Assembly (NCBI GenBank): GCA_963809255.1
Contig: CAWEIR010000003.1
Coordinates: 759,049-823,048, forward strand
Length of the DNA stretch: 64,000 bases
Reading direction: 5' to 3'
Source: Vulcanimicrobiota bacterium
GTDB lineage: Bacteria; Vulcanimicrobiota; Vulcanimicrobiia; Vulcanimicrobiales; Vulcanimicrobiaceae
A program made the position numbers and the translations under genes. Below, piece by piece: positions 1 to 58,902 of this stretch; the stretch's first letter is position 1; every line of letters starts with the position of its first letter. Under the pieces are notes generated by a model that had not been told where the DNA came from, ran no database searches, and was given only the letters and a program-made list of their open reading frames with translations.

Positions 1-622
1 GGAAGTGATAATCGCTCCAGGTGATTCGCTCGTGCGCCGGTTTGCCGCCGACTTGCGCGGTGGCATCGGCAACGACCGGCATCCAATACTTGCCGAAAGG
101 CCCGAACTCGACCTCGCCGCTGCCGTCGACGCCGGCACCGCCGCTCTGAAAGTGGACGGTGCGCGGAAGGAAGTTCGAGCCGTCGATCGTCAATCGGTCG
201 ATCCGGGCACCGGAAGCACGATTTAACGGCGTCGCTTCGTAGACGTAGTCAAAATGCCGGCCGTCTTTGACGGTCCCGAGGAAGAGCAGCTCGTACGATC
301 CGGTACTCGGCGCAAAGCGCACGATCGCATAACGATCCACATGGCGTGAGATGCGCACCACCTTGCGAAGCAACGTTATTCCGTCGACTGAAAGGGTATC
401 GTCCCGCACGTCTAGTCCGCTGCGATAAATTCGATGGTGCTGCTCGATGTTGCTCGGCCCTACTTGCGAGACGGTGTACGAGAAAACGACGACTTTCGGG
501 GCGGAGACTGCTTGGAGCGCCGAAGCGTATCGCTGCAAAACGTATTGCGAGTCGAGGTGACTTGCGCTCGCGCCCACCGACGCCACCAGTGCGAGCATCG
601 AGATCACACGCAAGGGGCTCAC
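1..622 (-). CDS. secreted hypothetical protein, possibly LolA/lipoprotein-sorting-like fold (C-terminal end runs off the window)
   Basis: Absent from the ORF track because there is no stop inside the window. Reverse translation from GTG 622..620 gives VSPLRVISMLALVASVGASASHLDSQYVLQRY... (signal-peptide-like) and stays open to position 1. The GTG overlaps the alaS stop as GTGA (619-622). ATG 598 is an alternative start. The fold assignment rests on general resemblance only. Confidence 0.6.
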   Translation of the reverse strand, partial: MSPLRVISMLALVASVGASASHLDSQYVLQRYASALQAVSAPKVVVFSYTVSQVGPSNIEQHHRIYRSGLDVRDDTLSVDGITLLRKVVRISRHVDRYAIVRFAPSTGSYELLFLGTVKDGRHFDYVYEATPLNRASGARIDRLTIDGSNFLPRTVHFQSGGAGVDGSGEVEFGPFGKYWMPVVADATAQVGGKPAHERITWSDYHF

Positions 623-3247
623 GTCAGCACGGCGTCGCGAATCACTTGGAGTGCCGCCTCGGCGCCGGAGCCGTCACTTCCGCCGCCCTGCGCCAACGCC
701 GCCTGCCCGCCACCTTTACCCGCGACCAGCGGCGCCGCCAGCTTCAGCAGCTTGCCCGCGTGAATGCCATCACCGATTAGATCATCGCTCGCGCTCACCA
801 AGAGACTGACGGTGCCGTTGTCGATACCGGCCAGCGCTACGACGCCGCTGCGAAAGCGATTTCGGATCGCCGTGTTGAGATGGCGAAGAGCTTCGCCGTT
901 GGCTTCATGGAGCACCACGCCGACAAAGGCGCGATCCCCTTTGCGCTCGGCCTTGGCAACGTAGACGTCGGCTTCGGCCGCCGCAAATCGAGCGCGCAAC
1001 TGCCCAACCGCCGTCTGCATCTCTTTGAGGTCGCGCTGCATCCGCTCGAGCCGCTCGAGCAACTCCTCGGGCGCCGCCGACATCGAGGCCGAAAGCGTAC
1101 CGATGAGATCGCTCTGCTTATTGACGTGTTCCTCGGCAGCCGCCGAAACGCATGACTCGATCCGGCGAATGCCGCTGCCGATCGACGATTCCGACAAAAT
1201 TACGAAAAGCCCCAACTCGCCGGTTGAGTGGGAATGCGTGCCGCCGCAGAACTCAATCGAAGGCCCCGCCTCAACGACGCGAATCATGTCGCCGTACTTT
1301 TCCCCGGCCATCCAAACCGCTCCGGTCTTTCTTGCTTCGTCGAGCGGAAGCACGCGTGTGACCAGATGCGCATCGTCGCGGATCATCTCGTTGACGCGGT
1401 GGGCGACGGCACGCCGCTGTTCGGGCGTCAGCGCACCTTTCGGCGAGCGGAAGTCGAAGCGCATGCGGTCGATGCCAACCCACGAACCGGCTTGATTTAC
1501 CTCGTCGCCGAGCACGTCTTTGAGCGCGCGTTGCAAAAGATGCGCGGACGTGTGGTGCCGCCGAATCTCGCGCCGCCACGATTCAAGAACGCCGGCGCGG
1601 ACCCGATCGCCGGCCGCGAACTCCCCGTCGACAACCCTGCCGTAGTGCGCGATCGCTTCGCCCATGTACTGAGTATCGTGCACGTCGAAGAGCGCCTGCC
1701 CGGAATCTTTCGAAGTAACCACGATTCGCCCGCGATCGCCGATCTGCCCACCGCGCTCTGCATAGAATGGCGTGCGATCCAAAATCAACACACCTTCGTC
1801 TCCGCGCGATAACGAAGCGACGGGCTTTCCTTCTTTGAGCGCCGCCACGACCTCGCCGTCGGCTTCGAGGCCCTCATCGTAACCAGTGAAACTGCTGCTG
1901 ATCGCCGGCAGATCCGTTAGCGCCACCACATCGCGCTTCGCGGCAGCGTCGCGTCGCGCGCGTTCGCGCTGCTCCTCCATCAGGCGGTCGAACGCGACGG
2001 TATCGACGACCGCACCGCGCTCGCCCGCGATTTCACGCGTAAGCTCGAGAGGAAAGCCAAACGTATCGTGCAGCAGGAATGCTTCCTGTCCGCCGATCAC
2101 TCGCCCCGGCCGTTGCGTCGCCTCGTCGATGACGCGTTCCAGCATCGTCATGCCGCGCTCCAGCGTCCGGTCGAACGTCTGCTCTTCTTGACGTAGCGCC
2201 GTCGTTATCCGCGCGGCGCTTTCGCGAAGCTCCGGATAGCCGGGCCGCAGCGAATGCACCGCTGCGGGCACGAGCTCGGAGAAAAAGCCGTCGGGATAGC
2301 CGAGCAGCCTTCCATTGCGAATAGCGCGGCGAATCAGAAAGCGCAGCACGAACCCTCGGTCAGTGTTCGATGGATAGACGCCGTCATTGATTAAGAACGT
2401 CGCCGAGCGAAGATGGTCCGCGATGATATTCTGGCGCGCCCGTTGTTCGCGATTGTCGAGCGTCGTGTGACCTATCGGTGGCTGCGCCGCGACTAAATCG
2501 GTGAAGAGGTCGGTCTGATACATCGAGGCAAAGCCGTTACACACGGCGAGCATGCGTTCGAAACCGGCGCCCGTGTCGATCGACGTGCGCGGCAGATCTT
2601 CGAGCTTCCCGTCCACCGTTCGATTGTACTGTTGAAAGACGACGTTCCAGATCTCGACGTACCGATTCCCGCGATTGGGCCCAGTGTCGTCGGCGCCGCT
2701 CGCGTGCTCGGCGCCCGTGTCGTAAAAGATCTCGGTGCACGGTCCACACGGACCGGTCGCACCCATCGTCCAGAAGTTGTCTTCGTCAAAACGCGTAATG
2801 CGTGCCGGATCGAGGCCGACTTCCCCGCTCCAAATCCGCGCCGCCTCATCGTCGTCCGTGTGCACGGTGACGTACAGCCGCTTCGGATCCAGACCAAGCA
2901 CCTGCGTCACGAACTCCCACGCCCACACAATCGCTTCGCGCTTGTAATAGTCGCCGAAGCTAAAGTTGCCGAGCATCTCCAAAAAAGTGCCGTGCCGCCC
3001 CGTCCTTCCAACGCTCTCGATATCGCTCTTCGCACCCGCAACCCGAAGGCAGCGCTGCACCGTCACGACGCGCGGCGCCGGCGCCGGCTGCTCGCCGAGA
3101 AAGACGGGCACGAACTGCTCCATGCCGGCGATCGTGAAGAGCGTGGTCAACATCTCGTGCGGAACCAGACTCGCTGGCGCAAGCAGCTTATGCCCCTTGC
3201 CAACCCAGGAAATCAATCCACGCCTGCCTAAGCTCTTGACTCTTCAT
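619..3247 (-). CDS. alaS: alanine--tRNA ligase; the first ~14 codons lie in a different frame from the 865-aa body (apparent 1-nt insertion around 3202-3206)
   Basis: ORF 619..3216 carries AlaRS hallmarks (KGHKLLAPASLVP, FTIAGMEQF, GRHGTFLEMLGNFSFGDYY, HTSAHLL editing motif, C-terminal GKGGG). The canonical N-terminus MKSQELRQAWIDFL is read from ATG 3247 in another frame and stops at 3188. The span is 2629 nt, i.e. 3n+1. Confidence 0.93.
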
Positions 3248-3325
3248 TCTGCCTTACTATAAACCGCCGCGGGTCGAGGCGTCGATGCGTTTGACGCGAT
3301 GCCGAGGAGGCAGCGCAGCAGGAGC

Positions 3326-3470
3326 GGCCAGGGGCCCGGGCGTCCATGCGGCGGGGCGTGCGAAGGAGGAGCGGAGGCAGGATGCCGGGAGCGACGACGA
3401 GCCGAGTAGCTTTTTCGCACGATGCGAAAAAGCGAGCGTCCCCGCAGCATGGACGCGCGGGCCCCTGGCC
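3326..3470. repeat. 145-nt structured imperfect palindrome, copy E1 (sigma-factor gene | alaS spacer)
   Basis: The 26-nt arms 3326-3351 and 3445-3470 are 24/26 complementary. The 93-nt core 3352-3444 is 85/93 identical without gaps to 14219-14311. A perfect inner 11-bp hairpin GCTTTTTCGCA/TGCGAAAAAGC lies at 3409-3433. Confidence 0.85.
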
Positions 3471-3486
3471 GCGGCGCCGGCGCGCG

Positions 3487-4290
3487 CTATTCGGCTAGAA
3501 CGGCGCGGAGCTTGTCGAGCGCCTTGGCTTGGAGGCGCGAGACGTGCATCTGCGAGACGTTGAGGCGCTTGGCGATCTCCGTCTGCGACACCGACTCGTA
3601 AAAGCGAAGGTAGATGATCACACGCTCTCGGCCGGTGAGTACCCGAAAGGCCTGTTCGAGATTCGCGCGATCTTCGAGGAGCTCGAGGCCGGCGTCGGCG
3701 ATGCCGACGGTGTCCGCGAGCGTCTGCGACTTTTTATCGGTCTCGCCGGAGATTTCGCTATCGAGCGAAAGGAGGTTATAAGCCTGACCGAGTTCCTGTG
3801 CCTCCAAAATCTCGTCTTCGCCCGCTCGGAGGTGCTCGGCCAACTCGGTTACCGTCGGGCTGCGGCCAAGCGATATCGAGAGCTTATCGCTCGCGCGGTT
3901 GACGGCGAGATTGAGCTCCTGCAGGCGGCGAGGCACCTTCACCGCCCAGCCCTTATCGCGAAAGTATCGCTTGATCTCGCCGACGATCGTCGGCGTCGCG
4001 TACGTCGTGAACTCGACGCCGCGTTCGAGATCGAAACGGTCGATCGCTTTGAGCAGTCCTACCGTTCCGACTTGCACCAAGTCGTCGAGCGGCTCTCCAC
4101 GATTGGCAAATCTCACTGCGAGAAAACGCACGAGATTGAGATGAACGACGGCGAGTTCCTCGCGCAACCGTTCGTATTGCGAATCCGGGGCCGCATTGTG
4201 TTGCGAGTACTGCTCGCGCCGCTCGATGAAGCGCTCGAAGAGGGCGCGGGTCCGCTCGCGGTCGCGTCGCGCTTGCTCCCGTTCTTGCAC
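3487..4290 (-). CDS. RNA polymerase sigma factor, SigB/SigF/SigG (group 3) type
   Basis: 267 aa with a GTG start. Region 2 DLVQVGTVGLLKAIDRFD and TYATPTIVGEIKRYFRD, region 4 SQTEIAKRLNVSQMHVSRLQ. Lies directly downstream of the anti-sigma kinase and STAS antagonist genes. Confidence 0.9.
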   Translation of the reverse strand: MQEREQARRDRERTRALFERFIERREQYSQHNAAPDSQYERLREELAVVHLNLVRFLAVRFANRGEPLDDLVQVGTVGLLKAIDRFDLERGVEFTTYATPTIVGEIKRYFRDKGWAVKVPRRLQELNLAVNRASDKLSISLGRSPTVTELAEHLRAGEDEILEAQELGQAYNLLSLDSEISGETDKKSQTLADTVGIADAGLELLEDRANLEQAFRVLTGRERVIIYLRFYESVSQTEIAKRLNVSQMHVSRLQAKALDKLRAVLAE

Positions 4291-8393: not shown

Positions 8394-9161
8394 TTACGGT
8401 GGGGCAGGCACCTTGAGCGGCTTCGGCGTCGCCAATTTCCGGTGAAACTCGCCGGGAAACTGCATCGTAACGTCTTTCTCCGCGTGAGCATCTCCGGTTT
8501 GCGTGTTGTACAACACTTTGCCGGCGTTCATCTTTCGCGTCCCCGCAACAATATGCACGGCGCCTTGCAGAAGCAAGGTATGTGCCTGGTCGTCCAACGT
8601 GCCGCTGTCGGCGGTAACGTTGGTATCGGCTTGCACGTAATGAACGTTTCCGATGGCCCTGTATACTTTCGCCGCTCCGTCGATCTGCGCTTTATCGGCC
8701 GTAAGCGTCGAGGGGCTCGACGGATGAGCGCCGCCTCCACTCTCCGTCAGGCTTCCGGCGCCGCCTTGCGAATCGTGCATCACCACGTGGCCGTTGAGAT
8801 AGAGCGCTTGTTTTTTGTAGTTGCCGTTCGCGCGATCCGCGGTAACGTCGCCGCCGACGCGCGTCATGACGACCTTGGCAGGCGTGCTGAAATCGCCCGT
8901 TTTAAAGTTTGCGTCGAGCGAGCTGGCGTGAACGGTCCAAACGCCGAGATCGAATGCTGCAGGGGCAGAGCCCGGCGAGTGGCTTGTATTCGGCGATCTC
9001 GGAGAACCCGGCGGCAGCGAGGGCGACGCGCTCGCCCGTGCCGAGGGCGAGACGCTCGGCGGCGTTGGCGAGACGCTCGGCTGCTGCGACGTTGCAGGAG
9101 AAGGCTTGGCGAGTGCGACCAGCGCCAAAGTCCCGATGAGCAGCGCAAGAAGGCGAATCAT
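8394..9161 (-). CDS. secreted OstA/LptA-like (LptD_N-type beta-jellyroll) protein with Pro/Ser-rich linker
   Basis: Signal peptide MIRLLALLIGTLALVALA, then a PS-rich linker. Repeated ...TADKAQIDGAAKVYRAIGNVHYVQADTNVTADSGTLDD... pattern typical of OstA-like repeats. Assigned by resemblance only. Confidence 0.5.
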   Translation of the reverse strand: MIRLLALLIGTLALVALAKPSPATSQQPSVSPTPPSVSPSARASASPSLPPGSPRSPNTSHSPGSAPAAFDLGVWTVHASSLDANFKTGDFSTPAKVVMTRVGGDVTADRANGNYKKQALYLNGHVVMHDSQGGAGSLTESGGGAHPSSPSTLTADKAQIDGAAKVYRAIGNVHYVQADTNVTADSGTLDDQAHTLLLQGAVHIVAGTRKMNAGKVLYNTQTGDAHAEKDVTMQFPGEFHRKLATPKPLKVPAPP

Positions 9162-12280: not shown

Positions 12281-14130
<1,850 letters not shown>

Positions 14131-14192: not shown

Positions 14193-14337
14193 GGAGCGAG
14201 AGGCACACGCCGGTGCTCCGGGGCGTGTGAAGGAGGAGCGAAGCCAGGATGGCGAGAGCGACGACGAACCGAGTAGCTTTTTCGCTGGATGCGAAAAAGC
14301 GAGCGTCCCCGGGGCACCGGCATGTGCCTCTTGCTCC
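14193..14337. repeat. 145-nt structured imperfect palindrome, copy E2 (atpG | atpD spacer)
   Basis: The arms 14193-14218 and 14312-14337 are 23/26 complementary. The core 14219-14311 is 85/93 identical to E1. The inner hairpin lies at 14277-14301. The element starts 6 nt after the atpG stop. Confidence 0.85.
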
Positions 14338-14343
14338 AAGAGA

Positions 14344-15231
14344 TCACTCTACGCCCAGCGCCTCCGCGCCGCCGACGATTTCTAGGAGCTCCTTGGTAAT
14401 TGCGGCTTGGCGGGCGTTGTTCATGGCGATCGTTAGTTCGTCGATCAGCTTTGAGGCGTTGTCGGTGGCGTTGGTCATTGCGACGAGCTGTGCGGCGAAA
14501 AATGCGGCATCGGTTTCGAGCATTGCCGAGTAGAGCGTGAACTCGAGATACTTGGGCAGCAGGCGGGAGAGTACGAACTCCGGGCTTGGAGAAAACTCGA
14601 CGGCGCCGCGAGTGGCGCGGCTCTGCTCCTGGAGGGGGTCGGTACCGGCGAAAGCCTTTAGATCTTCGGCGAGCACGGGCACGAGCTTACGCGTTTCGGG
14701 GCGCTGCGACATCATCGATACGAGCTTCTGCGAGACGACGACGATCTGGGAGATGGTGCCGTGCACGAAGTCGTCGGCTACGCGATTGGCGACCTCGCGC
14801 GCCGTGATAATCTTTGATGCGCCGAGCGGCCAGGTTGGATGTTCCGAGACGCCCATCCGTCGCACGGCATTACGCGCCTTGAGACCAACCGTGTAGTAAC
14901 GAACGCCGCTGCGGCCGCGGGCGAAGCTCTCGGCTGCGTGAATGACGTTGGAGTTGAAGGCGCCGGCTAGCCCCTTATCCGCGCTCATGAGAACGATGCC
15001 GGTGGGCGCGCTCTCGTTCCCCGGTTTCATGAATGGGTGATCGACGGACGAAACCGCCGCCATCAAGTCCGCAAGCATCTCCGCGAGCGCGTCTGCGTAA
15101 GGACGAGCGCGCTTGCGCGCCTCTTCGGCGCGCCGAATCTTTGCCGCGGCGACCTGCTTCATCGCTTTGGTGATCTGTTGAGTATTCTTGAGCGACCGGA
15201 TGCGGTCGCGCAGATCTCGTACCGACGGCAT
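14344..15231 (-). CDS. atpG: F1 ATP synthase subunit gamma
   Basis: 295 aa. N-terminus LRDRIRSLKNTQQITKAMKQVAAAK and C-terminus QAAITKELLEIVGGAEAL are typical of gamma. Confidence 0.93.
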   Translation of the reverse strand: MPSVRDLRDRIRSLKNTQQITKAMKQVAAAKIRRAEEARKRARPYADALAEMLADLMAAVSSVDHPFMKPGNESAPTGIVLMSADKGLAGAFNSNVIHAAESFARGRSGVRYYTVGLKARNAVRRMGVSEHPTWPLGASKIITAREVANRVADDFVHGTISQIVVVSQKLVSMMSQRPETRKLVPVLAEDLKAFAGTDPLQEQSRATRGAVEFSPSPEFVLSRLLPKYLEFTLYSAMLETDAAFFAAQLVAMTNATDNASKLIDELTIAMNNARQAAITKELLEIVGGAEALGVE

Positions 15232-16749: not shown

Positions 16750-16912
16750 GGAGCCTGTAGGGTTATGGACATTTTCGGATTCGTCGTCGAGTTTTGTTCG
16801 AAGACGAGGCGCGATGAGGGAGCGGAGCCGTAGCTTCGTGACCGAAGAGCAACGAAGCTTTCGGACAAAAGACGACACGAAGACGGAAATGCGCCATAAC
16901 CCTACAGGCTCC
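16750..16912. repeat. 163-nt near-complete palindrome, copy E3 (atpH | atpA spacer), related central module
   Basis: Perfect 19-bp terminal inverted repeats GGAGCCTGTAGGGTTATGG at 16750-16768 and 16894-16912. The interior is an imperfect palindrome with a central 8-bp hairpin AGCTTCGT/ACGAAGCT (16832-16859). It shares the ordered blocks GATG..GGGAGCG..GAGCCG..TAGCTT with E1/E2. Confidence 0.85.
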
Positions 16913-47800: not shown

Positions 47801-48430
47801 GCGAAGTTGACTCTCCAACTCGGGAATTCGCCGTTCGAGCTCCGCAATAAGATCGCTGATGCGAATGGCGTTCTGCTCGGTGCGTTCCAAGCGGCGCATC
47901 GACTCGTGTTTGCGCGCCAGAAACTTGCCGATGCCCGCGGTCTCTTCGAAGAGCGAGCGCCGCTCGGCCGGCTTGCTGACAAGGATTGCATCGATCTGTC
48001 CTTGCGAAACGATGGCATAAGAGCCGGGTCCGAGGCCGGTGCCCATGACCAAGTCGAGCACATCGCGTAAACGTACCTGGCTGCGGTTGATGAAATATTC
48101 GCTCTCACCCACGCGATAGGCGCGCCGGGTTATTTCGACTTCGTTGAAGTCGATCGGCAACGCACCGTCGGAGTTATCGAACAGTATCGAGACTTCGGCA
48201 AGACCGAGCGGCTTGCGGCTTTCGTTGCCGGCGAAGATGACGTCTTCCAACCGTCCCGATCGAATGCTCTTGGTCGACGTTTCCCCCAGCACCCATCGAA
48301 ATGCATCCACCAGGTTGGACTTCCCCGAACCGTTCGGACCGACGATCGCCGTGACGCCGTCGCCGAACTCCAGCGCCGTTGGTTCGGCAAACGTTTTGAA
48401 GCCGAACGATCGAATCTTCTTGAGCTTCAC
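44867..48430 (-). CDS. smc: chromosome segregation protein SMC
   Basis: 1187 aa. Walker A GPNGSGKSN, long coiled coils with a hinge, signature LSGGERAMTA, Walker B YLLDEVDAALD. GTGA overlap with rnc. Confidence 0.96.
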   Translation of the reverse strand: MKLKKIRSFGFKTFAEPTALEFGDGVTAIVGPNGSGKSNLVDAFRWVLGETSTKSIRSGRLEDVIFAGNESRKPLGLAEVSILFDNSDGALPIDFNEVEITRRAYRVGESEYFINRSQVRLRDVLDLVMGTGLGPGSYAIVSQGQIDAILVSKPAERRSLFEETAGIGKFLARKHESMRRLERTEQNAIRISDLIAELERRIPELESQLRRAKRYRRVSARLRDLEILGYLRAGASRRAERVSLRDELERGEEQRAAAAAKAATLGAEVTRLRTQLYRCELQLEELRSKSQSERNDVARVEAEYAAALARREALERQSTQTSEDTARVLGERALLVTAMEQLEARLGPLSQALEEARERELEAQATLSQARAQLEKVFTELREVEAGATEQATRKAERRVQAQTRRTEVERLEREEQTARERAEQLEIAAGGASHRHGQCHRQIAALEEELLDARGRAENAELQAGAAQEEVAAALGAHRDQTGDVAAAQSRLHTIEELENSLEGHVPGTRAVVEARQRGELRGIEDIVSNLITTQERYARAMDVAFGARLSNVVTTTSEDAERCVEFLNRKEAGRATFLPLDTLSDRQGRNLEPGLAAVPGVLGYAHTLLQTAPRYASIVNFLVGNVLIVDRLETGIELVRERGVRDTIVTLGGEQITGGGAITGGRFARERSILSRRFLAASLREALADMRLRLDESEQALRGAQARAHAAIGERDAARERQARAESQLVGLRAQTAALTEEVERTQAELETGRGATASLHEQVLQSRELQREYERSDPEAQKSDDERLRLETELARVREEIAAAQTAQTAASAHAADLRERTGGLAAERDAANARLGMLDQDRARAGSARERMLAEIALLMEETRSAHLHLEGLWRGVVSLDARLEQSRKEREELVTGQARVESELRLAEQEERDAAAGGERHRTRLAQIEAELGMLVSQFAQHPATNEECADVESRYRDEADAVVEELPRLRDDLVRLESNVNLNAEAERDDVAQREEFLRVQLEDLAKARATLLESIQEIERESQAQFNATFERVAAAFSTMYGRLFAGGQAKMWQTEPANLAETGIEIAVQPPGKKQMPLTALSGGERAMTAAALIFALIEIKPAPFYLLDEVDAALDDANIERFCQMVREFAVKSQMLIVTHNKKTMESADRLYGVTTKEAGVSAIVSAELAAQAEMSVA

Positions 48431-49155
48431 GTCCCGACCGCGCGCGCCAAGTTTTCGTCATTTGCCGGAGTAAGCGAGATCAGTGCGGCCTCGGCCGCCG
48501 CTTGCTGCGCGGTTTTTTTCGAGGGCCCGTGCCCCTTGCCCACGAGCTTACCGTTGACGGTGACCCTGGAATGGAAGGCCGGGCGTTGCGGCGTGCCCCG
48601 ACTGGTCTCGCGGTACACGGGGGTGGCCGCCAAATGTTCCTGCGCGTAGTGCTGCAAGCGAGTCTTGGCGTCGAGCAACGCGTCCGCGGAGTGATCCAAC
48701 TGCTCGATGTGATACTTAACGACGAACGCGCGTGCCTTGTCGAGCCCGTAGCGCAGGTAGAGCGCGCCGACAAAAGCTTCGACGGCGTCGGCCAGCACCG
48801 ACGTATTATCGCTTCCGCCCGCGGCCCGCATTCCCGCCCCGAGCAGCGTGAGCTCTGAGAACCGTAGCCGTCGCGCCGTTCGGGCAAGCTGCGCGTCGTT
48901 GACGATGGCGGCTTTGCGCAACGTCAGCAATCCCTCGGACTCGTCGGCGAATTGCTCGAAGAGCCATCCCGCCGTGATGCAGCCGAGCACGGAGTCGCCA
49001 AGAAACTCCATTCGGTCGTTCGAGCTGCCGCCGCGCTCTTTTGCATAGCTCTGATGAACGAACGCCATTTCGAATACGCTTAATTCGTCGCGCTTGCGAA
49101 TGCCTGCAAGACGAAGCAGGGCGCGCAACCGCCGCCGATACGCTTCGCCGCTCAT
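48427..49155 (-). CDS. rnc: ribonuclease III
   Basis: Signature NDRMEFLGDSVLG and a C-terminal dsRBD (GPSKKTAQQAAAEAAL). Confidence 0.94.
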   Translation of the reverse strand: MSGEAYRRRLRALLRLAGIRKRDELSVFEMAFVHQSYAKERGGSSNDRMEFLGDSVLGCITAGWLFEQFADESEGLLTLRKAAIVNDAQLARTARRLRFSELTLLGAGMRAAGGSDNTSVLADAVEAFVGALYLRYGLDKARAFVVKYHIEQLDHSADALLDAKTRLQHYAQEHLAATPVYRETSRGTPQRPAFHSRVTVNGKLVGKGHGPSKKTAQQAAAEAALISLTPANDENLARAVGT

Positions 49156-51301: not shown

Positions 51302-52180
51302 GTGCACGTTTTACTGGCCACATCGTGGCTGGACCCCTTCGTAAGCTTCATCTGGTCGGTCGTGCTCGCGATCAACAAGCCGATCGGAAATCTCGGCTGG
51401 AGCATGATCGTTCTGGCGGCGCTGATCAGGCTGGTCTTTTGGCCGCTCAATACGGCGCAGTTCAAGGCGTTCTTGAAGATGCAAAAGATTGCGCCGATGC
51501 TCAAACGCCTCCAAGAACGCTTCAAGGACGATAAGCAAAAACAGCAACAGGAAACGATGGCGCTGTACAAGGAGCAGGGCGTCAATCCGTTTGCCGGCTG
51601 CTGGCCGATGCTCGTACAGTATCCCGTCATCATCAGCGTCTATTACGTGGTGCTCAATCACAAGACGGAGTTTGCTAATCAGAGTTGGATGTGGATCGGG
51701 AGCGCTTTCTCCAAAGCGATCTCGTCGCCGTCGCTCTTCGGGACGCACATCTTCGCCGCAAGCCTGGCGCTCCCCGATCTCTTTTTGATCCTGGTCTACG
51801 CGCTCTCGATGTATCTCAGCGTTCGCTACGTGAGCATGCCGGCCACCGATCCGCAGCAAGCTCAGATGCAGCGGTCGATGGCGGTTTTTTCACCGCTGAT
51901 GCTCGGCTTTCTCGGCTGGCGCTATCACTGGCCGTCGGCAATGGTCCTCTACTGGTGCTGCTACAACATTTTCACGATGGCACAGCAGTTCTATCTGCTG
52001 CGCCGCTACCATCAGCCCCTGGCGTTGATCGACAGCGAGCACGTCATTACCGAAAGCGTTTCCGGCGGCAAAGCACCTTCCGGAAAGGCTCTGCCGAGCA
52101 GCAATGGCGCCGCGCAGTCGAGCCAGCCTGGCGCGGCGCGCTCCTCGCGATCGAAGCGAAAGAACAAAAAAGGTAACTAA
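51302..52180 (+). CDS. yidC: membrane protein insertase YidC (short form)
   Basis: Motifs GWSMIVLAALIRLVFWPL, MQKIAPMLKRLQERFKDD, YKEQGVNPFAGCWPMLVQ and a basic C-terminal tail. Confidence 0.93.
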   Translation: MHVLLATSWLDPFVSFIWSVVLAINKPIGNLGWSMIVLAALIRLVFWPLNTAQFKAFLKMQKIAPMLKRLQERFKDDKQKQQQETMALYKEQGVNPFAGCWPMLVQYPVIISVYYVVLNHKTEFANQSWMWIGSAFSKAISSPSLFGTHIFAASLALPDLFLILVYALSMYLSVRYVSMPATDPQQAQMQRSMAVFSPLMLGFLGWRYHWPSAMVLYWCCYNIFTMAQQFYLLRRYHQPLALIDSEHVITESVSGGKAPSGKALPSSNGAAQSSQPGAARSSRSKRKNKKGN

Positions 52181-52181
52181 C

Positions 52182-52793
52182 ATGCTCTACGAAGACGATT
52201 TTGAGTTCGAGGAACAGCCGGCCGACGTGCGCGACCGCCCAATTCCGGGCAAGTCGGGAGGCGGAAGAGACGGCGGTGGCACTCGCCGGCGGCGCGACCC
52301 CCGCCCAAGCAAGACCGCGCCGCGCAATCGGCAAGAGCTCCCCGACGAGGCCAAACCGGCACACGACTTTCTTGCCGAGTTACTCGAGCGAATGGGCGCT
52401 GGCCCGATCGAGATCGAGTATATCGCGCGCCCCGAGGGCGAGTATCTCGAAGTAACCGGACCGAACCTCGGCATGTTGATCGGTCGCCACGGCAATACGT
52501 TGGAAGCGCTCAACCTCGTGTTCAACAACGTGCTCAATGCCGGCGTTCGAAACAATCGCCGATACTTTACCATCGACGCCGAGGGTTACCGCGCCGCGCG
52601 TGCCGACCAGCTGAAAAATCTCGCGCTTGCAACGCTCGAACGCTGTGTCCGCGAGCGCTTGCCGCAGAAGCTCGAACCCATGCTGCCGTCGGAACGGAAG
52701 ATCGTGCATCTCGCAATCGCCGATTCGGAGTTGGTGCGCACGGAATCGGAAGGGGAAGAGCCCGAACGCCGAGTCGTCATATTTCCCCGTTGA
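52182..52793 (+). CDS. jag: Jag/SpoIIIJ-associated RNA-binding protein (KH + R3H)
   Basis: Motifs GMLIGRHGNTLEALNLV (KH) and LEPMLPSERKIVHLAI (R3H). ATG 52182 lies just after the yidC stop. Confidence 0.85.
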   Translation: MLYEDDFEFEEQPADVRDRPIPGKSGGGRDGGGTRRRRDPRPSKTAPRNRQELPDEAKPAHDFLAELLERMGAGPIEIEYIARPEGEYLEVTGPNLGMLIGRHGNTLEALNLVFNNVLNAGVRNNRRYFTIDAEGYRAARADQLKNLALATLERCVRERLPQKLEPMLPSERKIVHLAIADSELVRTESEGEEPERRVVIFPR

Positions 52794-52798
52794 GCTGA

Positions 52799-54154
52799 AT
52801 GCTCGACGGGTCTTCGACGACCATCGTCGCCGTCGCGACGCCTCCCGGAAAGGGCGCGGTCGGCATCGTCCGAGCCAGTGGTCCATCGGTCCCCGAACTC
52901 GTCCACCGCTTAGTTCAAACGAAATCCCGCTTGCGCCGCCGTGTGGCGACGTACGCGACAATCGTTGACGAAAAGGGCGAGCTGCTCGACCGCGGACTGG
53001 CGATTTTTTTCGAAGCGCCGCACAGCTACACCGGCGAGGATTTGCTCGAGCTTCAGATCCACGGCTCTCCGGTGGTCGGCCGCGAAGTCGTTCGCGCGAT
53101 GCTCGCGTGCGGCGCTCGGCTAGCCGAGCCGGGCGAGTTCACCCGTCGCGCATTCTTCAACGGAAAAATGGCGCTGCACGCCGCGGCCGCGGTTGCGGAC
53201 ATCATCGACGCTCAGACACGTTGCGCCGCGCGCGCCGCGCTAGCGAACTTTGAGAGCGGGTTGGCGCAGGAGGTTCGCGCAGTGCGCAGCGCTCTAGCGA
53301 CAATTCTCCAAGAACTCGAGGGCGCGATCGACTTTCCGGACGAAGTTCCCGAGCCCGCACGCGGCGGACTGCGGGAACGACTGGCGCCGATTCGCGCTCG
53401 TTTGGAGCGTCTTGCGCGTGACGGCGAGCTCGGACGTCTCGTGCGAGAGGGCCTCGGCGTCGCGATCGTAGGCCCACCCAACGCCGGAAAGTCGTCGCTG
53501 CTCAATGCCCTGTTGGGTTCCGATCGCGCGATCGTCTCCGACATCCCGGGAACCACCCGCGACACGATCGAGGAAAGTGTGGTAGTCGACGGAGTACCGG
53601 TGCGGCTGATCGATACGGCCGGCATCCGATCCCACGCCGACTGCCTTGAGGCGCACGGCATCGCCCGCACCGAGCGCGCGCTAGACTCGGCTGCCATCGC
53701 CCTCGTCGTCGCCGACGGCTCACAACGGCCGGACTCGGCCTCAAGGCAGCTGATCGAACGTACCCGGGACCGGCCGCGCATACTTTTTCTCAACAAGGCC
53801 GACTTGGGAACTGACCCAACGTTCGCGGCCGTATGGCCGGGCGCAATCGTTGGAAGCGTGCGGAATCCCGAGACGCTGGAGCGGATTCGCGATGCCATCG
53901 CAAGCACCGGCTGGAACGGCGAACGCTTTGACGCAACTCGGCCTCACCTGGCGGGGCTTCACGAGTTCGAGGCCACCTACGCCGCGATCACGGCGCTCGA
54001 GCGCGCCCGCGACGCGCTCGACGCGTCCGAGCCGATCGATTTCGTGGCGACCGAGCTAGCGCACGCGTTTTCGCAACTCGGGCATGTAAGCGAGCAGGTT
54101 GCCGCCGAAGAGATCGTCACTGGCATCTTCTCCCGTTTTTGCATCGGTAAGTAA
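52799..54154 (+). CDS. mnmE: tRNA modification GTPase MnmE
   Basis: Motifs IVAVATPPGKGAVGIVRASG, G-domain GPPNAGKSSLLN and DTAGIR, C-terminal FCIGK. Confidence 0.95.
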   Translation: MLDGSSTTIVAVATPPGKGAVGIVRASGPSVPELVHRLVQTKSRLRRRVATYATIVDEKGELLDRGLAIFFEAPHSYTGEDLLELQIHGSPVVGREVVRAMLACGARLAEPGEFTRRAFFNGKMALHAAAAVADIIDAQTRCAARAALANFESGLAQEVRAVRSALATILQELEGAIDFPDEVPEPARGGLRERLAPIRARLERLARDGELGRLVREGLGVAIVGPPNAGKSSLLNALLGSDRAIVSDIPGTTRDTIEESVVVDGVPVRLIDTAGIRSHADCLEAHGIARTERALDSAAIALVVADGSQRPDSASRQLIERTRDRPRILFLNKADLGTDPTFAAVWPGAIVGSVRNPETLERIRDAIASTGWNGERFDATRPHLAGLHEFEATYAAITALERARDALDASEPIDFVATELAHAFSQLGHVSEQVAAEEIVTGIFSRFCIGK

Positions 54155-54179
54155 CGCACCGACTCACAAGGAGATCGAT

Positions 54180-54278
54180 ATGCAACGCATTCTTCTAATT
54201 GGGCTAACCTCTGCAGCAGATGTTAAGTTATGCACGGGGCAGCGCGTTATTCTCGCCAACGGAAAAGTATTGCAATAA
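54180..54278 (+). CDS. candidate 32-aa small ORF (MQRILLIGLTSAADVKLCTGQRVILANGKVLQ) in a low-GC spacer
   Basis: AAGGAG lies 6 nt upstream of the ATG. The ORF ends 3 nt before the hdeD-like ORF. The local sequence is visibly AT-richer than its surroundings. No homology could be assessed. Confidence 0.3.
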   Translation: MQRILLIGLTSAADVKLCTGQRVILANGKVLQ

Positions 54279-54281
54279 CTC

Positions 54282-54857
54282 GTGCACTCGATTGAAATGG
54301 CCGGCGGCATAGCACGAAACTGGTGGCTGTGGTTGATCCGTGGAATCGTTGCGATTCTCTTCGGCGTGTTCGCACTTCGGTGGCCCGGGGACACACTCGT
54401 CGTCGTCGGGTTTCTCTTTGGTGCCTACGCGCTCGTGGACGGCATCTTAGCGATTGTTGCGACGATACGCGCTGCAGAGACGCATCGGCGCTGGTGGCCG
54501 CTCTTGTTCGAAGGCGTCGTGGGAATACTCATTGCCGCAATAACGTTTTGGGATGTCCGGATCACGTTGCTCGCCCTCTATTTCACGATTGCAGCGTGGG
54601 CTTTTATTACCGGAGTTCTGGAGATCGTGGCGGCAATTCATTTGCGCTCGCACTTAACCAACGAATTCTGGCTCATCATCGGTGGAATTGGTTCGATTCT
54701 CTTCGGCATCTTGATGATTTGGTATCCACTCGCCGGCGCGCTCGCACTCGTTTGGCTGATCAGCGCGTACGCGATCGTTTTCGGGATTGTAATGATAGCT
54801 TTTTCGCTCCGCTTGCGCGGGCACTCCGCCGCTTTAGCAGCCGAGTCAACGCGTTGA
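54282..54857 (+). CDS. HdeD/DUF308 family membrane protein
   Basis: Repeated DUF308 pattern [20 protein letters not shown]...[13 protein letters not shown]...[14 protein letters not shown], six TM helices. ATG 54297 is an alternative start. Confidence 0.8.
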
Positions 54858-54862
54858 CCTCT

Positions 54863-56725
54863 ATGCTCGACGACGCCGGCACGATCGTCGTCGGCGGCGG
54901 CCATGCCGGCGTCGAGGCTGCATTAGCGGCGGCGCGTCTCGGCGTTCCAACGATACTCGTGACCGGCGATCCGCAGAGAATCTGCACGTTGCCCTGCAAC
55001 CCGTCGATCGGCGGGAGCGCCAAGGGCCAGTTGGTTCGCGAGATCGACGCGCTCGGCGGGGCCATGGCCGGCATCGCCGATCGCTGCAGCGTTCACGCTC
55101 GTTTTCTCAATGAGAGCAAGGGGCCCGCGGTGCGAGCCCTACGCCAGCAGATGGACAAGCCCGCGTACGGCAGACTCGCGACGGCGCTGCTGCAATCGCA
55201 GACGAATCTCACGATCGTCCAGGGTCTGGTCGAAGACCTGATCGTAGAGGGGGGCGCGGTTCGTGGCGTCGTCTGCGCCGGCGACGCCCGCTATCGCGCC
55301 AGAAGGATCGTCCTTGCGACGGGCACTTTTCTGGGTGGAAAGTCATTTTGCGGAAGCGTCGTGCGCGCCGAAGGACGCTTTGGCGAGGCGCCGGCGCGCG
55401 GCCTAGCCGCTGCACTGCGTCGTCTGGGCTTTCCGGCAGCGCGACTGAAGACCGGTACGCCGCCGCGCATCGACCGGCGCACCGTGAATTATGACGCGAT
55501 GACGCTGCAGCCGCCCAGCTCGCATCCATTGCTGTTCTCGTACGCGAGCGAAAAAAAGTTCGCGGGACCCCAACTGCCGTGTTACGTCACGCAAACCAAC
55601 GCGCACACGCATGCCTTAGTGCGAGAGAATCTTTCCAAGTCGCCGCTCTATGGACTCGATTTGATTCGAGGCATCGGCCCGCGATATTGTCCGTCGATCG
55701 AAGACAAGGTCGTAAAGTTCGCGCATAATCCGGCGCATCAAATCTTTATCGAGCCGGAAGGCTGGGACGAGCCTACGCTTTACGTGGGCGGCTTTTCGAC
55801 CTCGCTGCCGGCCGAGATCCAGCTTGAGATGCTTCACACGCTGCCCGGCTTGGAAGCGTGCAGCATGCTTCGAGCCGGCTACGCGGTGGAATACGACATG
55901 GTGCCCCCTACGGAGCTGCGTGAGACGCTGGAGACCCGCCGGATCGCCGGCCTCTACCACTGCGGGCAGCTCAACGGCACCTCCGGTTATGAGGAGGCCG
56001 CGGCGCAAGGACTCGTCGCCGGCATCAATGCCGCGCGGGCAGCCCGTGGCGAGGAACCGCTTCGGCTGAGCCGAGCCCAGGCCTACATCGGCGTGCTCAT
56101 CGACGACTTGGTGACCAAAGGCGTCAACGAGCCCTATCGCATGCTCACCTCGCGCGCCGAACATCGCGTCCTGCTGCGGCACGATAACGCGGATCTGCGC
56201 CTGACGCCCGTGGGCCGCGAGATGGGAATGATCGACGATCGGGCCTGGGAGGGCTTCCAGCGACGGCGCGAAGCGCTCCAACTCGCGCGCACCCGAGCCG
56301 AGAAGACTCGCATCTCAGAGGAGCGCGTGGGCGAGGAACGCTTCGCCGCCGGGAGCACGATCGCGGACGCCCTGCGCCGGCCGACCCTCGAGTTCGGCGA
56401 CGTTGCCGCCCGCTTTGACCCGGTTCTCGATGACGAAATCGGCGAACGGCTGGCTATCGAGCTCAAATGCGCGGGCTACGTGCGCCGTCAAGAGCTTGCG
56501 ATCGAGAAGGCCTCGAAGACCGAGAATGCGATGATACCGGCCGATTTCGACTACCAATCGATTGCGGCGCTCTCGGCGGAGGCGCGCGAAAAATTTACCG
56601 CGCAACGGCCCCGAACGCTTGGGACGGCCGGGCGAATTCCCGGCATCACGCCCTCCGATGTCGCCATCGTCGGCCTTTTCGTCTATAGGGGCTCCCGCGA
56701 GAGCCTCCCCGTTCCCGCGGTCTGA
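54863..56725 (+). CDS. mnmG: tRNA uridine 5-carboxymethylaminomethyl modification enzyme MnmG (GidA)
   Basis: Motifs [34 protein letters not shown] and [11 protein letters not shown]. The 800-aa track ORF is fused in frame with upstream non-gene sequence. Confidence 0.95.
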
Positions 56726-56729
56726 CCAA

Positions 56730-57398
56730 ATGGCGGCCCTCGAAGACCTTCTCGCCGCAGAGGGGCTGGGCGAAGGCCACGTCGCGGCCCTGGCGCTCTA
56801 CGGCCGGCTCGTTCTCGAAGCCAATCGCCACTTCAACGTGACGGGAGCCCGCTCGCCCGAAGAGATCGCGCGCCATATCGCCGACAGCCTTTCGGTCGTT
56901 CCGTATCTGAGGGAGCCGTATGTGGACGTCGGATCGGGCGCCGGCTTCCCCGCGATTCCGGTCGGGATCGTGACCGGAATGCCCGTCACGTTGATCGAGG
57001 CGACCCAGAAGAAGGCTCGCCTGCTTGGATCGCTCTTAGAGCGGCTCGAGCTCCAAGGAATCGTCATCGCGGAACGCGCGGAAGCCGCCGGCCACCGGCC
57101 CGAGCTGCGCGAGCACTTCACGACCGGAACCTGCCGAGCGGTGGCCAGCGCCCCAGCGGTCGCGGAGCTCCTTTTGCCCTTCATCGGAATCGGCGGAGCG
57201 GCGGTCTTGCAGCGCGGCCGCATCGACGAACGCGAACGCAGCGCCCTCGAAGACGCATCGTTGATGCTGGGAGGCTCGGTTGAGGTCGAGGATGAGCTCG
57301 GCGGCGCTCGCCGTATCGTTCTCCTGCGCAAGCAGCGGGCGACCCCCAGCCGATTTCCCCGCCGCACCTGGGCACAGAAGCGCCCGCTCTGCGATTAG
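56730..57398 (+). CDS. rsmG: 16S rRNA (guanine527-N7)-methyltransferase RsmG
   Basis: Motifs NRHFNVTGARSPEEIARHIADS and SAM motif VDVGSGAGFPAIP. Confidence 0.9.
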   Translation: MAALEDLLAAEGLGEGHVAALALYGRLVLEANRHFNVTGARSPEEIARHIADSLSVVPYLREPYVDVGSGAGFPAIPVGIVTGMPVTLIEATQKKARLLGSLLERLELQGIVIAERAEAAGHRPELREHFTTGTCRAVASAPAVAELLLPFIGIGGAAVLQRGRIDERERSALEDASLMLGGSVEVEDELGGARRIVLLRKQRATPSRFPRRTWAQKRPLCD

Positions 57399-57496
57399 TC
57401 AAGGATTTCCGAATTGTTTCCCGTGAAACACGCGCTCCGGCGGCCCCACAAGCCCGGGGCGATTGAATCCGGCCGGGTCCGTAGAAGATAGCGCTG

Positions 57497-58882
57497 ATGC
57501 AGCCTGCTCATTCGATCGATGCTCTGCTTGCGGCCGCTCTTCCCGAGGGAAGCCTTTATGCCGTGGGTGGAAGGGTGCGTGACGAGCTGCGGGCGGAACT
57601 CGAATCGGCTCCGGTCACAACCAAAGACTTAGACTATGTCGTGGCCGGGATGCCGCTGGAGGGCCTCGTTGCAGCGCTACGGCCGTTAGGACGGATTGAC
57701 GTCGTCGGCGCCTCGTTCTCCGTCGTGAAGCTCTCCGTTGGCTCCGAAACCGTCAACGTAGCCCTGCCGCGGCGGGAGCGTTCCGTCGGCATCGGGCACC
57801 GAGAGTTCCAAGTCGAGGCGGGCCCCAGCGTCACCCTCGAAGAGGACCTCGGCCGACGCGATTTCCGCATGAATATGCTCGCGCGGGGGCTTCCGTCCGG
57901 TCTCTTGATCGACCCGTATGGCGGCCAGGACGACATCCGGCAACGCCGCATCGATATTCTCGCGCCGGCAAGCTTCCGTGAAGATCCGCTGCGGATGCTG
58001 CGCGCCGCTCAGTTCGCCGCTCGTTTCGAATACTCGACCACGGCAAGTCTCCGCGCGGCAATGACCGAGTCCGCGCCGCTAGTGGCAAGCGTTTCGGCCG
58101 AGCGAATCCATGACGAGCTGACGAAGCTCTTTGTGAAGGCGCGCAAACCGTCGATCGGGCTGGAGCTGCTTCGCGAGACCGGAGTCTTGGCGTTCCTTTG
58201 GCCGGAGCTGCTCGAAGGGGTCGGCGTCGAGCAGAACGAGTGGCACGCCTACGACGTCTGGACTCATTTGCTCGCAACCCTCGACGCCTCTCCGCCTGGC
58301 GACCTTACCATTCGCTTAGCAGCCTTGCTGCACGACGTGGGCAAGCCGAGAACCAAGGATGGTCCTCATTTTTACCGTCATGAGATCGTGGGCGCCGAGA
58401 TGGCCGAAGCGATGCTCGAGCGTTTCCGGTTCCCCAATGGGGTCGTCAACGCGACCGGCCACTTGGTCCGCCATCATATGTACAACGGGGATCCGCAGCT
58501 TACCGACGCGGCGCTGCGCCGTTTCATCCGGCGGGTTCACCCGGAAAACATCGAACGTTTGTTCGTATTGCGGCAGGCGGACGTTCGAGGCAGTGGGCTG
58601 CCGAAGCGCGACGACAGCAACGAACGCTTCGAGGCGCGCGTCCACGCGGAGCTTGCCAAGAAACCGGCCTTCTCCCTCGCCGATCTGGCCGTCAACGGCG
58701 ACGACGTCATTGCGGCACTCCTGCGCCGAGAGGAAGTATCGCCTGGATTTCCGGGCGACGAGCGCGTCGGCGCCGCGTTGCGCTGGCTCTTCGAGCAGGT
58801 CACCGACGAGCCCGAACGTAACGAGCGGACGTTGCTGCTGCAAAGCCTCGAGCAGTACCTCGATCGCGTCGGCACTCCATAG
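57497..58882 (+). CDS. CCA-adding tRNA nucleotidyltransferase / poly(A) polymerase family with HD domain
   Basis: Motifs AVGGRVRDEL..DLDY, RRDFRMNMLA and HD motif AALLHDVGKP. Confidence 0.85.
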   Translation: MQPAHSIDALLAAALPEGSLYAVGGRVRDELRAELESAPVTTKDLDYVVAGMPLEGLVAALRPLGRIDVVGASFSVVKLSVGSETVNVALPRRERSVGIGHREFQVEAGPSVTLEEDLGRRDFRMNMLARGLPSGLLIDPYGGQDDIRQRRIDILAPASFREDPLRMLRAAQFAARFEYSTTASLRAAMTESAPLVASVSAERIHDELTKLFVKARKPSIGLELLRETGVLAFLWPELLEGVGVEQNEWHAYDVWTHLLATLDASPPGDLTIRLAALLHDVGKPRTKDGPHFYRHEIVGAEMAEAMLERFRFPNGVVNATGHLVRHHMYNGDPQLTDAALRRFIRRVHPENIERLFVLRQADVRGSGLPKRDDSNERFEARVHAELAKKPAFSLADLAVNGDDVIAALLRREEVSPGFPGDERVGAALRWLFEQVTDEPERNERTLLLQSLEQYLDRVGTP

Positions 58883-58902
58883 ATAGCACGGAGAGAAACC
58901 CT

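Follow-up and report, generated by a model that had tools for sequence, protein, structure and literature searches.

What kind of element keeps its center constant and lets the sequence of its stem go? The question is raised by two intergenic elements, E1 and E2, in a stretch of 64,000 nucleotides (nt) of contig CAWEIR010000003.1 (hereafter the window), from a bacterium that the homologs of its atpG gene place beside "Candidatus Cybelea" (Eremiobacterota). The Eremiobacterota (WPS-2) are a phylum widespread in soil and peat with a single cultured member. Searches of Rfam and of the literature returned no described non-coding RNA or repeat family from this phylum. We found that E1 and E2 belong to a lineage-specific, selectively maintained family of self-contained hairpin modules in the Eremiobacterota ("Ca. 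Cybelea"/Baltobacteraceae). Each has a 91-nt core on a stem of 26-55 bp with a sequence unique to its locus. Tentatively, we read them as a structured RNA module on a locally generated stem, with folded single-stranded DNA (ssDNA) being less likely.

A conserved core between locus-specific arms

The first-pass annotation of this DNA had described a conserved core inside self-complementary arms that share no sequence relationship between the copies, and its figures were reproduced when recomputed from the window. The two cores (3352-3444 and 14219-14311) were identical at 85 of 93 positions without gaps. The 26-nt arms were complementary to each other at 24 positions in E1 and 23 in E2, and were unrelated between E1 and E2 (11/26 identical on the left, 10/26 on the right). 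The hairpin GCTTTTTCGC/GCGAAAAAGC was also confirmed in both copies. The natural boundary of the core, GGGG...CCCC, encloses 91 nt in each copy (Table 1). Weaker arm pairing continues past 26 nt, extending over 56 nt at 79% in E1 (3301-3356 with 3440-3495) and over 43 nt at 81% in E2. This pattern is far beyond chance, because GCGAAAAAGCGAGCGTCCCC, a core 20-mer with an expected count of 0.05, is present twice, because long inverted repeats of such quality number only three in the 64 kb (E1, E2, and a further element, E3), and because the predicted RNA folds (-101.9 and -95.6 kcal/mol, z = -9.0 and -10.7) are about 9-11 standard deviations better than those of dinucleotide shuffles.

The E1 core consists of stem P1 (GGGGCGU / GCG(U)CCCC), a purine-rich linker, GAAGGAGGAGCG, hairpin 1, an GAGCGACGACGA linker, GUAG, and hairpin 2. 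The stem of hairpin 1 differs between the two copies, with a G:C pair of E1 (GGCA-GGA-UGCC) replaced by C:G in E2 (GCCA-GGA-UGGC). This swap had been reported as a compensatory double change between E1 and E2. The swap itself was confirmed, and it was found to mark two core subtypes that recur across many genomes, so it represents one event or a few and not one per copy.

Further copies were sought by exact core-pattern scans of a genome collection and of metagenomes, followed by look-ups of neighboring genes (the atp, CDF-transporter, and nuo regions). Labels such as L001 and L002 denote the fetched contigs of relatives, taken from metagenome-assembled genomes and metagenomes. The scans uncovered 7 true loci in the genome collection and 11 in the metagenomes, at about six types of site. 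About 20 further distinct copies were identified, all of them on Eremiobacterota-type contigs ("Ca. Cybelea"/Baltobacteraceae). These copies keep the core and have arms particular to each locus, which bears out the proposal of a structured element family. We denote cores of this kind type A. In a comparison of complete copies, full-length identity to E1 was at least 88% in 15 of 17, and the E1 core was 87.9-93.4% identical to 12 full-length copies other than itself.

Type-A copies were located between the sigma-factor gene and alaS (E1, L002, L006/L011, L014, L015/L019), between atpG and atpD (E2, L018, L025-27), between a CDF-transporter gene and a thiolase gene (L003, L004, L005, L007, L009, L020), between nuoD and nuoE (L001/L016, L039, L040), between nuoK and nuoL (L040), and at two further sites (L008/L013 and L012). 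All copies start 0-17 nt past a stop codon, and the stop often lies within the stem. The sequence common to paralogous loci is limited to the core plus or minus about 4 nt, and at every locus, over six or more locus types, the arms are self-paired yet unrelated to the arms of other loci. Since homology between paralogs stops at the core boundary, the cores are exchangeable between paralogous copies. The atpG, CDF, and NuoE proteins of the occupied genomes are 79-97% identical to the query proteins. No clean empty site for the type-A core was found: the examined relatives hold a family member at atpG|atpD, CDF|thiolase, and nuoD|nuoE, apart from L030-32, where the spacer is unrelated and 181 nt long, and L036, where a mini version of 39 nt is present. 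With two copies in the 64-kb window, type A appears to be a family of few copies, resident at a small number of conserved intercistronic sites, rather than a dispersed repeat of high copy number. A viral contig collection contained no copy of the core, and a phage origin was rejected on this basis.

Several of these contigs showed variants. The mini element of L036 (10865-10903, CDF|thiolase) has a 5-bp closing stem and the hairpin GCGCCAC-AGGAG-GUGGCGC, followed by GACGAGCGA; either a deletion left it behind, or it could represent the element in minimal form. The copy at 4700-5000 of L008 (identical to L013) has a type-A core with nested duplicated arms, in which CTCGGCGCT.GGGAGGGCCCGTC occurs twice on each side. 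A mini-repeat of about 30 nt, (A)GCCCTTCGACTCCGCTCAGG(A/G..)ACAAGC, was observed in L006 (4505-4531), L015, L039 (5806-5837, 5934-5954, and 11604-11622), L030 (12674-12694), and L028 (12713-12731). It is inserted at the identical point of the type-A core in two different loci, and was also found in spacers and inside atpC, which encodes 151 amino acids in L028 and L030 versus 139 elsewhere. Two contigs, L001 (DASRXM010000048.1) and L006 (DATMKR010000113.1), are labeled Candidatus Babeliales and Candidatus Acidoferrum; they are probably mis-binned, because they carry Eremiobacterota-type genes and the element in Cybelea-like synteny.

Selection, fold, and turnover of the module

We compared the element with the four-fold degenerate sites of neighboring genes, reading the core and arm counts for L006 and L014 from the element sequences. 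Between the window and L006, changes were found at 30 of 144 four-fold sites, at 2 of 88 core positions, and at 5 of 27 positions in each arm, including three fully compensated pairs. The corresponding figures were 37/132 and about 4% of the core for L014, 17/45 (in atpG) and 1/91 for L018, and 41/167 and 7/91 for L025. Among the CDF-locus copies, L004 and L003 differ at about 23% of four-fold sites and at 1 of 91 core positions, with unalignable arms, and L004 and L007 differ at 16-24% of four-fold sites and at 9 of 91 core positions (the other core subtype), with arms differing at 2 of 58. Overall, cores at orthologous loci changed by 1-8% versus 21-38% at four-fold sites, a rate 3-30 fold below that of these sites. 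This large difference indicates that the core is under strong purifying selection in place.

The arms are constrained to pair and nothing more, and at times they are replaced wholesale. The orthologous E1 arms in L006 and L014 carry compensated double changes. Arms are partly copied from the local flank, and their covariation was found only among orthologous copies. The earlier suggestion of selection on an RNA or ssDNA fold therefore needs a refinement on this point while standing in substance: it had pictured arm sequence drifting between copies, and the E1 and E2 arms are probably not drifted forms of one ancestral arm.

To describe the fold, we used RNAalifold and explicit pair counts on 16 type-A copies, from which a covariance model (R1) was built. 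In these copies, 96% of cells were paired versus 80% in column shuffles and 39-50% with slid partners, and double changes were found in 16 of 33 pairs, a clear excess of covariation over the shuffled and slid controls. The supported parts are the arms, P1, a 2-bp junction helix, hairpin 1, and hairpin 2. At pair 20:86 of the junction helix, G:C, C:G, and A:U were all observed. Hairpin 1 (GCCA-GGA-UGGC, with the stem variants GGCA/UGCC and GCCC/GGGC) has C:G in 10 copies and G:C in 5 at pair 61:69, A:U in 15 copies and C:G in 1 at pair 63:67, and an invariant GGA loop. Hairpin 2 varies between CGC/GCG and CAC/GUG, the latter compensated in L012 and L008, and can have an added U:A pair; its loop contains GGA in nearly all members and reads AGGAU or UGGAU in most copies. 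The comparison supports a three-way junction for the purine-rich strand of the core, made up of P1, single-stranded GAAGGAGGAGCG and GAGCGACGACGA linkers, and the two hairpins.

Diverged members, denoted types B, C, and D, were found with this model in genomes further removed, where they too occupy the atp, CDF, and nuo sites and score 26-47 bits. They retain the architecture and both GGA loops, and in all members the hairpins are flanked by GGAGCC...GGCGRGAGCG. Across 21 members of the superfamily, 94% of cells were paired and 23 of 33 pairs showed double changes, figures that lean towards structure because the alignment was fitted to the model. Compared with L024 (10920-11017), the type-B core of L011 (10854-10928) is without 41 nt; because the direct repeat GCCTCCTC bounds the missing stretch, this loss points to a slippage deletion.

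We analyzed the wobble pairs and found that on the purine-rich strand the modeled pairs include 54 G·U versus 3 A·C, and the paired part of the arms about 23 G·U versus 2-5 A·C. The excess of G·U indicates that the purine-rich strand is the one that folds. The complementary, pyrimidine-rich strand is also a strong folder (-94.8 kcal/mol, z = -9.2). Wobble polarity is identical in sense and antisense copies, and its equality in both orientations of the arms indicates that arms and core are one oriented unit. A mutational bias was rejected by reasoning as the source of the G·U excess, since deamination of an exposed strand would give the opposite polarity in antisense copies. Copies with the purine-rich strand in the sense of the operon (L005, L009, L020, L025, L024, L033, and L034) keep the conserved core and the wobble polarity. 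Since the same locus flips at a fixed replication direction, neither the host transcript nor the strand of replication can be what sets the constraint. This pattern of orientation leaves two possibilities, namely an RNA made from any correctly directed transcription crossing the element and then processed and stabilized through its own stem, or a folded ssDNA recognized in trans.

Arms and core also invert as one unit. L018 has the same arms as E2, and L025, whose atpG is 95% identical, has the arms and core of E2 with the whole unit inverted. The far arm in L025 continues into AAGAGTCACTCTACGC, which repeats the end of atpG and the spacer in inverted form and abuts the downstream flank GCGCTCACCTC, conserved in L024. 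A template switch during replication of a palindrome is expected to yield such a product. In L021, L022, and L024, too, the arms include the final codons of atpG and its stop codon, copied in inverted form. Further flips were observed at the CDF locus (L003, L004, and L007 versus L005, L009, and L020) and in type B (L024 versus L028), and L028 combines the outer arms of E2 with different inner arms and a type-B core. The arms are renewed locally: template switches in the palindrome turn the unit round and carry the adjoining flank, with the upstream gene's stop codon, over into the far arm, and centers are removed by microhomology deletions.

Neither the window nor 3 x 20 kb from relatives contained a long hairpin without a core, which indicates that arms are tied to cores and are not pre-existing terminators. 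In its simple form, the insertion of a mobile core into pre-existing terminator hairpins was rejected, since empty long hairpins were not seen and the wobble polarity of the arms travels with the core. A cycle of central deletion followed by re-insertion into a remnant hairpin is possible, given the E3 remnant in L024 (see below) and the outer arms of L028.

Candidate identities of the element

The element is kin to the bacterial interspersed intergenic hairpin repeats by niche and palindromy, with a reversed pattern of conservation. It lacks defining features of transposable elements of the miniature inverted-repeat type (MITEs), REP/REPIN, PATE, retrons, integron attC sites, and invertons, and is absent from Rfam. 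The annotation had recognized no named non-coding RNA family, and Rfam 15, whose families include CsrB/Rsm, 6S, Y RNA, retron msr, and ribozymes, gave no match at gathering thresholds in the whole window; the best match around E1 at E <= 10 (ctRNA_pGA1, 14.1 bits versus a threshold of 45) is meaningless. It had also set the element apart from a classical MITE, rightly, as the terminal inverted repeats are not conserved and no direct repeat that could be a target-site duplication flanks E1, E2, or the atp or nuo copies. The copies at the CDF locus do have flanking CTAG, yet this sequence is a palindrome in its own right and belongs to the stem.

REP/BIME and REPIN elements likewise lie in intergenic regions just past the stop codons of operons, form hairpins, occur in both orientations, are inherited vertically over long times, show compensatory stem changes, and have GTAG 5' of the hairpin. 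In those elements, however, the stem is conserved and recognized and the loop is variable, while here the arms are locus-specific and the 91-nt center is conserved; their copy number runs to hundreds, against an apparent handful here. No RAYT gene was seen in the 64 kb plus about 20 kb of flanks. ERIC/IRU, Correia/NEMIS, RUP, and BOX-like repeats, some of which have been reported to affect mRNA stability, resemble the element as imperfect palindromes of 100-200 nt in transcribed intergenic regions, with presence/absence variation and internal insertion variants. They differ in having conserved terminal inverted repeats and usually target-site duplications, whereas the termini here are unrelated and without duplication. 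The stalks of rRNA processing, and RNAs excised by RNase III, also hold a conserved RNA between long complementary sequences that need only to pair, but the copies found here lie within protein-coding operons and are often antisense to them.

CsrB, RsmY, and RsmZ likewise present GGA motifs on short hairpins, within the loop, and along purine-rich single strands, and have CAGGAUG-type loops, and the element does have the GGA loops on both hairpins (in nearly all members) and the GGA-rich linker of a CsrA sponge. It differs in having two hairpin sites only and a long closing stem, and neither a promoter or terminator of its own nor an Rfam match was found. PATEs of the IS200/IS605 type resemble it in two similar subterminal hairpins on one strand, the absence of terminal inverted repeats and target duplications, and a recognition that would be strand-specific. 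As to their target, no fixed tetranucleotide was found at the left end, where the flanks are GCGGC, GCTCC, GTGA, GTCGC, and TTCGT; the element sequences showed no guide-and-target pattern, no TnpA gene was located nearby, and the loci are conserved. A retron RNA was rejected because no reverse-transcriptase gene is adjacent, the neighbors being alaS, the sigma-factor gene, atpG, and atpD. An inverton was rejected because the arms vary by locus, E1 and E2 have no promoter-like site inside, no recombinase gene is nearby, and the inversion of the unit bears the signature of a template switch. For an attC site, the outer ends are unrelated between loci and are without R''/R' motifs (RYYYAAC / GTTRRRY).

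Among the remaining readings, we favor a structured RNA, although with less than even confidence. In this reading the duplex, long and near-perfect, would be a stalk for processing or protection, a substrate of the RNase III type like the stalks on either side of rRNA, and would excise or present the core from any transcript crossing the element in the right direction. The core could then be a sequence-specific platform for a putative partner, protein or RNA, able to read the purine tract and the GGA loops. With rnc in the window, the genome does encode the enzyme expected to cut RNA duplexes of this length. We consider unlikely a fuller version, in which the core would nucleate its own locus-specific hairpin by template switches and be excised as a trans-acting RNA linking the atp, nuo, and stress sigma-factor operons, with at least two such families (types A-D and E3) in the Baltobacteraceae. 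Several observations weigh against a structured RNA. The G·U/A·C strand signal would equally arise from an ssDNA fold. In about 18 of 25 locus-lineages, among them every sigma|alaS and nuo copy and the majority of those at atp, the purine-rich strand runs antisense to the adjacent operon, and a promoter scan found no sigma-70 promoter of its own for this strand and none inside E1 or E2. The GGA loops are reminiscent of CsrA sites. No csrA gene was seen among roughly 0.5 Mb of sequence from the fetched contigs, a result that is uninformative. In many non-gammaproteobacterial lineages, csrA accompanies flagellar genes. V. alpinus, the only cultured member of the phylum, is without flagellin (PMC9758169).

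The main alternative, a somewhat unlikely one, is a non-autonomous mobile or selfish element in the form of folded ssDNA, similar to REP/REPIN-RAYT or IS200/IS605 PATE, in which a transposase acting in trans would read the purine-strand hairpins and GTAG; the core would be copied and the arms added later by palindrome dynamics. Such an element would explain why paralogous loci share no more than the core and its immediate border, why the core subtype is swapped under kept arms (L004 versus L007) or the core type replaced inside common outer arms (L028 versus the window), and why E3 is gained or lost between close relatives. A strand-specific ssDNA fold tolerates G·T, its function would be independent of orientation to transcription or replication, and the antisense bias could merely keep a strong Shine-Dalgarno-plus-AUG out of operon mRNAs. 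The GTAG beside the hairpin also recalls REPs. However, copy number appears low, with the same few loci occupied across genomes as divergent as their atpG, CDF, and NuoE proteins indicate, and the core is conserved well below the four-fold-site rate, unlike decaying insertions. A conserved target, target-site duplications, and terminal inverted repeats are lacking, no copy occurs in viral contigs, and no transposase is present in the window; as the annotation had stated, Pfam identified no transposase, reverse transcriptase, or integrase among its 50 largest open reading frames (ORFs).

The antisense bias could also mean that the pyrimidine-rich strand is the active one, as a cis-acting element of the operon mRNA with CUCCUCCUUC, CGUCGUCGCUC, and UCC loops in the atp, nuo, and sigma transcripts. 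It could serve as an anti-Shine-Dalgarno mimic, as a loading platform for Rho or S1, or simply as a stable 3' hairpin that sets how strongly neighboring cistrons are expressed relative to each other. The start of the element just past stop codons, often with the stop in the stem, and the strong fold of the complement agree with this, but the 54 wobbles of the purine strand would be A·C mismatches in such an RNA, versus 3 the other way, and the sense copies keep the same core and the same wobble polarity. We regard this reading as quite unlikely. A CsrA/Rsm-type sponge or binding site, in which two CAGGAUG-type loops and the GGA-rich linker would bind a CsrA dimer, is more doubtful still. The CsrB repeat consensus, CAGGA(U/C/A)G, appears to equal the loop motif of the element, and GGA is retained in the loops over covarying stems. 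Against it stand the lack of any Rfam match to CsrB, RsmX, RsmY, or RsmZ, the csrA and flagellin observations given above, a literature search that yielded no paper pairing Eremiobacter with CsrA, and the antisense orientation of most copies. Finally, the element could be bound as double-stranded DNA by a dimeric DNA-binding or nucleoid protein, as BIMEs are by IHF and gyrase, which would account for a function that appears independent of orientation and for two hairpins that are palindromic in duplex DNA. We consider it very improbable, since the wobble polarity and the covariation of stems around invariant loops fit a folded single strand and not an operator, and a protein site would have no need of variable 30-bp arms.

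The comparative support for the element is unusually clean: compensatory pairs are numerous, the polarity of the strands is clear, and the core evolves more slowly than synonymous sites by the factor given above. The copies are located inside the ATP synthase and NADH dehydrogenase operons. A fixed center on a free stem is the reverse of the conservation seen in REP, REPIN, and MITE, and the family illustrates, in a natural case, the ways in which bacterial chromosomes build, invert, and erode long palindromes. Were the core a platform for binding protein or RNA, energy metabolism and a stress sigma factor would be joined in one regulon; if it is mobilized as ssDNA, it would represent a new kind of non-autonomous element.

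Genomic setting and other long-armed elements

All genes flanking E1 and E2 are on the minus strand (Table 1). The sigma-70 family gene is the last in a cluster of STAS, RsbW-like kinase, and sigma genes. Between E1 and alaS, a promoter-like site was found on the minus strand at 3285-3256. A TTGACT-N16-TATAAA sequence upstream of E1 was rejected as a promoter, because it overlaps the apparent ribosome-binding site of alaS and its -10 hexamer is without the final T required by the scan. An intrinsic terminator was also rejected, the arms having no flanking T-runs and the copies sitting within operons, as was a small protein starting at the AUG of hairpin 1, whose ORF enters the variable arms and whose AUG is lost in L008 and L040. 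A covariance-model match at 53643-53747 inside trmE (E = 0.05) and a core match with 3 mismatches at 54793 inside gidA were treated as chance.

Table 1 Features of E1, E2, and E3 and of selected genes in the window.
Feature	Position (strand)	Remarks
E1 left arm	3326..3352 (+)	locus-specific; pairs with 3444-3470
E1 conserved core	3353..3443 (+)	type A subtype 1; 91 nt; covariance-model score 134.8 bits
E1 hairpin 1	3376..3386 (+)	GGCA-GGA-UGCC, loop GGA
E1 hairpin 2	3409..3433 (+)	GCUUUUUCGC-ACGAU-GCGAAAAAGC
E1 right arm	3444..3470 (+)	ends 17 nt from the stop codon of the sigma-factor gene
E2 left arm	14193..14219 (+)	locus-specific
E2 conserved core	14220..14310 (+)	type A subtype 2; covariance-model score 133.8 bits
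E2 hairpin 1	14243..14253 (+)	GCCA-GGA-UGGC
E2 hairpin 2	14276..14300 (+)	
E2 right arm	14311..14337 (+)	ends 6 nt from the atpG stop codon (14344-14346)
E3	16750..16912 (+)	second family; long arms and purine-rich conserved core; between atpH and atpA; inverted repeat of 53 nt at 74%
alaS	619..3216 (-)	downstream of E1; Pfam tRNA-synt_2c
sigma-70 family gene	3487..4290 (-)	Pfam Sigma70_r2, r3, r4; E1 directly past its stop, core antisense
atpD	12693..14130 (-)	downstream of E2; Pfam matches on both pieces; split by a 1-nt insertion near 13688
atpG	14344..15231 (-)	upstream of E2; homologs named ATP synthase gamma
rnc (RNase III)	48427..49155 (-)	Pfam Ribonuclease_3 and dsrm

The frame break in atpD consists of one extra base relative to the L025 ortholog, in the context CCGGCATTAAAGTCG[T]TCAACTTG, and the split gene is either an assembly error or a pseudogene. 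Towards the right end of the window, at 51302-60536, the gene order is yidC, jag (KH/R3H), trmE, gidA, gidB, a CCA-adding/poly(A) polymerase-like gene, parA, and parB. The plus-strand GC skew is negative across 1-56 kb, and the cumulative GC skew flattens near 56-64 kb. This gene order, together with the flattening, suggests that the replication origin lies at or just past the right end of the window.

The third long-armed element, E3, has a core unrelated to that of E1 and E2, and model R1 gives no match to it. It is missing at atpH|atpA in L021, L022, L025, L028, and L030, and in L024 it is reduced to the remnant GGAGCCTGTAG|GCTCC, the center having been deleted between AGG microhomologies. 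The insertion of E3 supplied the last codons and the stop of atpH (AGSL*). Homologs of the E3 core with unrelated arms were found in the nuoA|nuoB spacer of L039 and L040, so this second family shares the type-A architecture. At 725-912 of L021, the spacer separating rpiB from an AP-endonuclease-like gene holds another palindromic element, with 32-nt arms and a 124-nt center. Its core resembles neither type A nor E3, so these genomes hold several such families. At the atpH-atpA junction of L028 (about 8460-8500) and L030 (about 8465-8500), the 16-nt segment CTAAGAAAGTTGATG(A), with the ribosome-binding region of atpA, is duplicated in tandem; L025 has it once.

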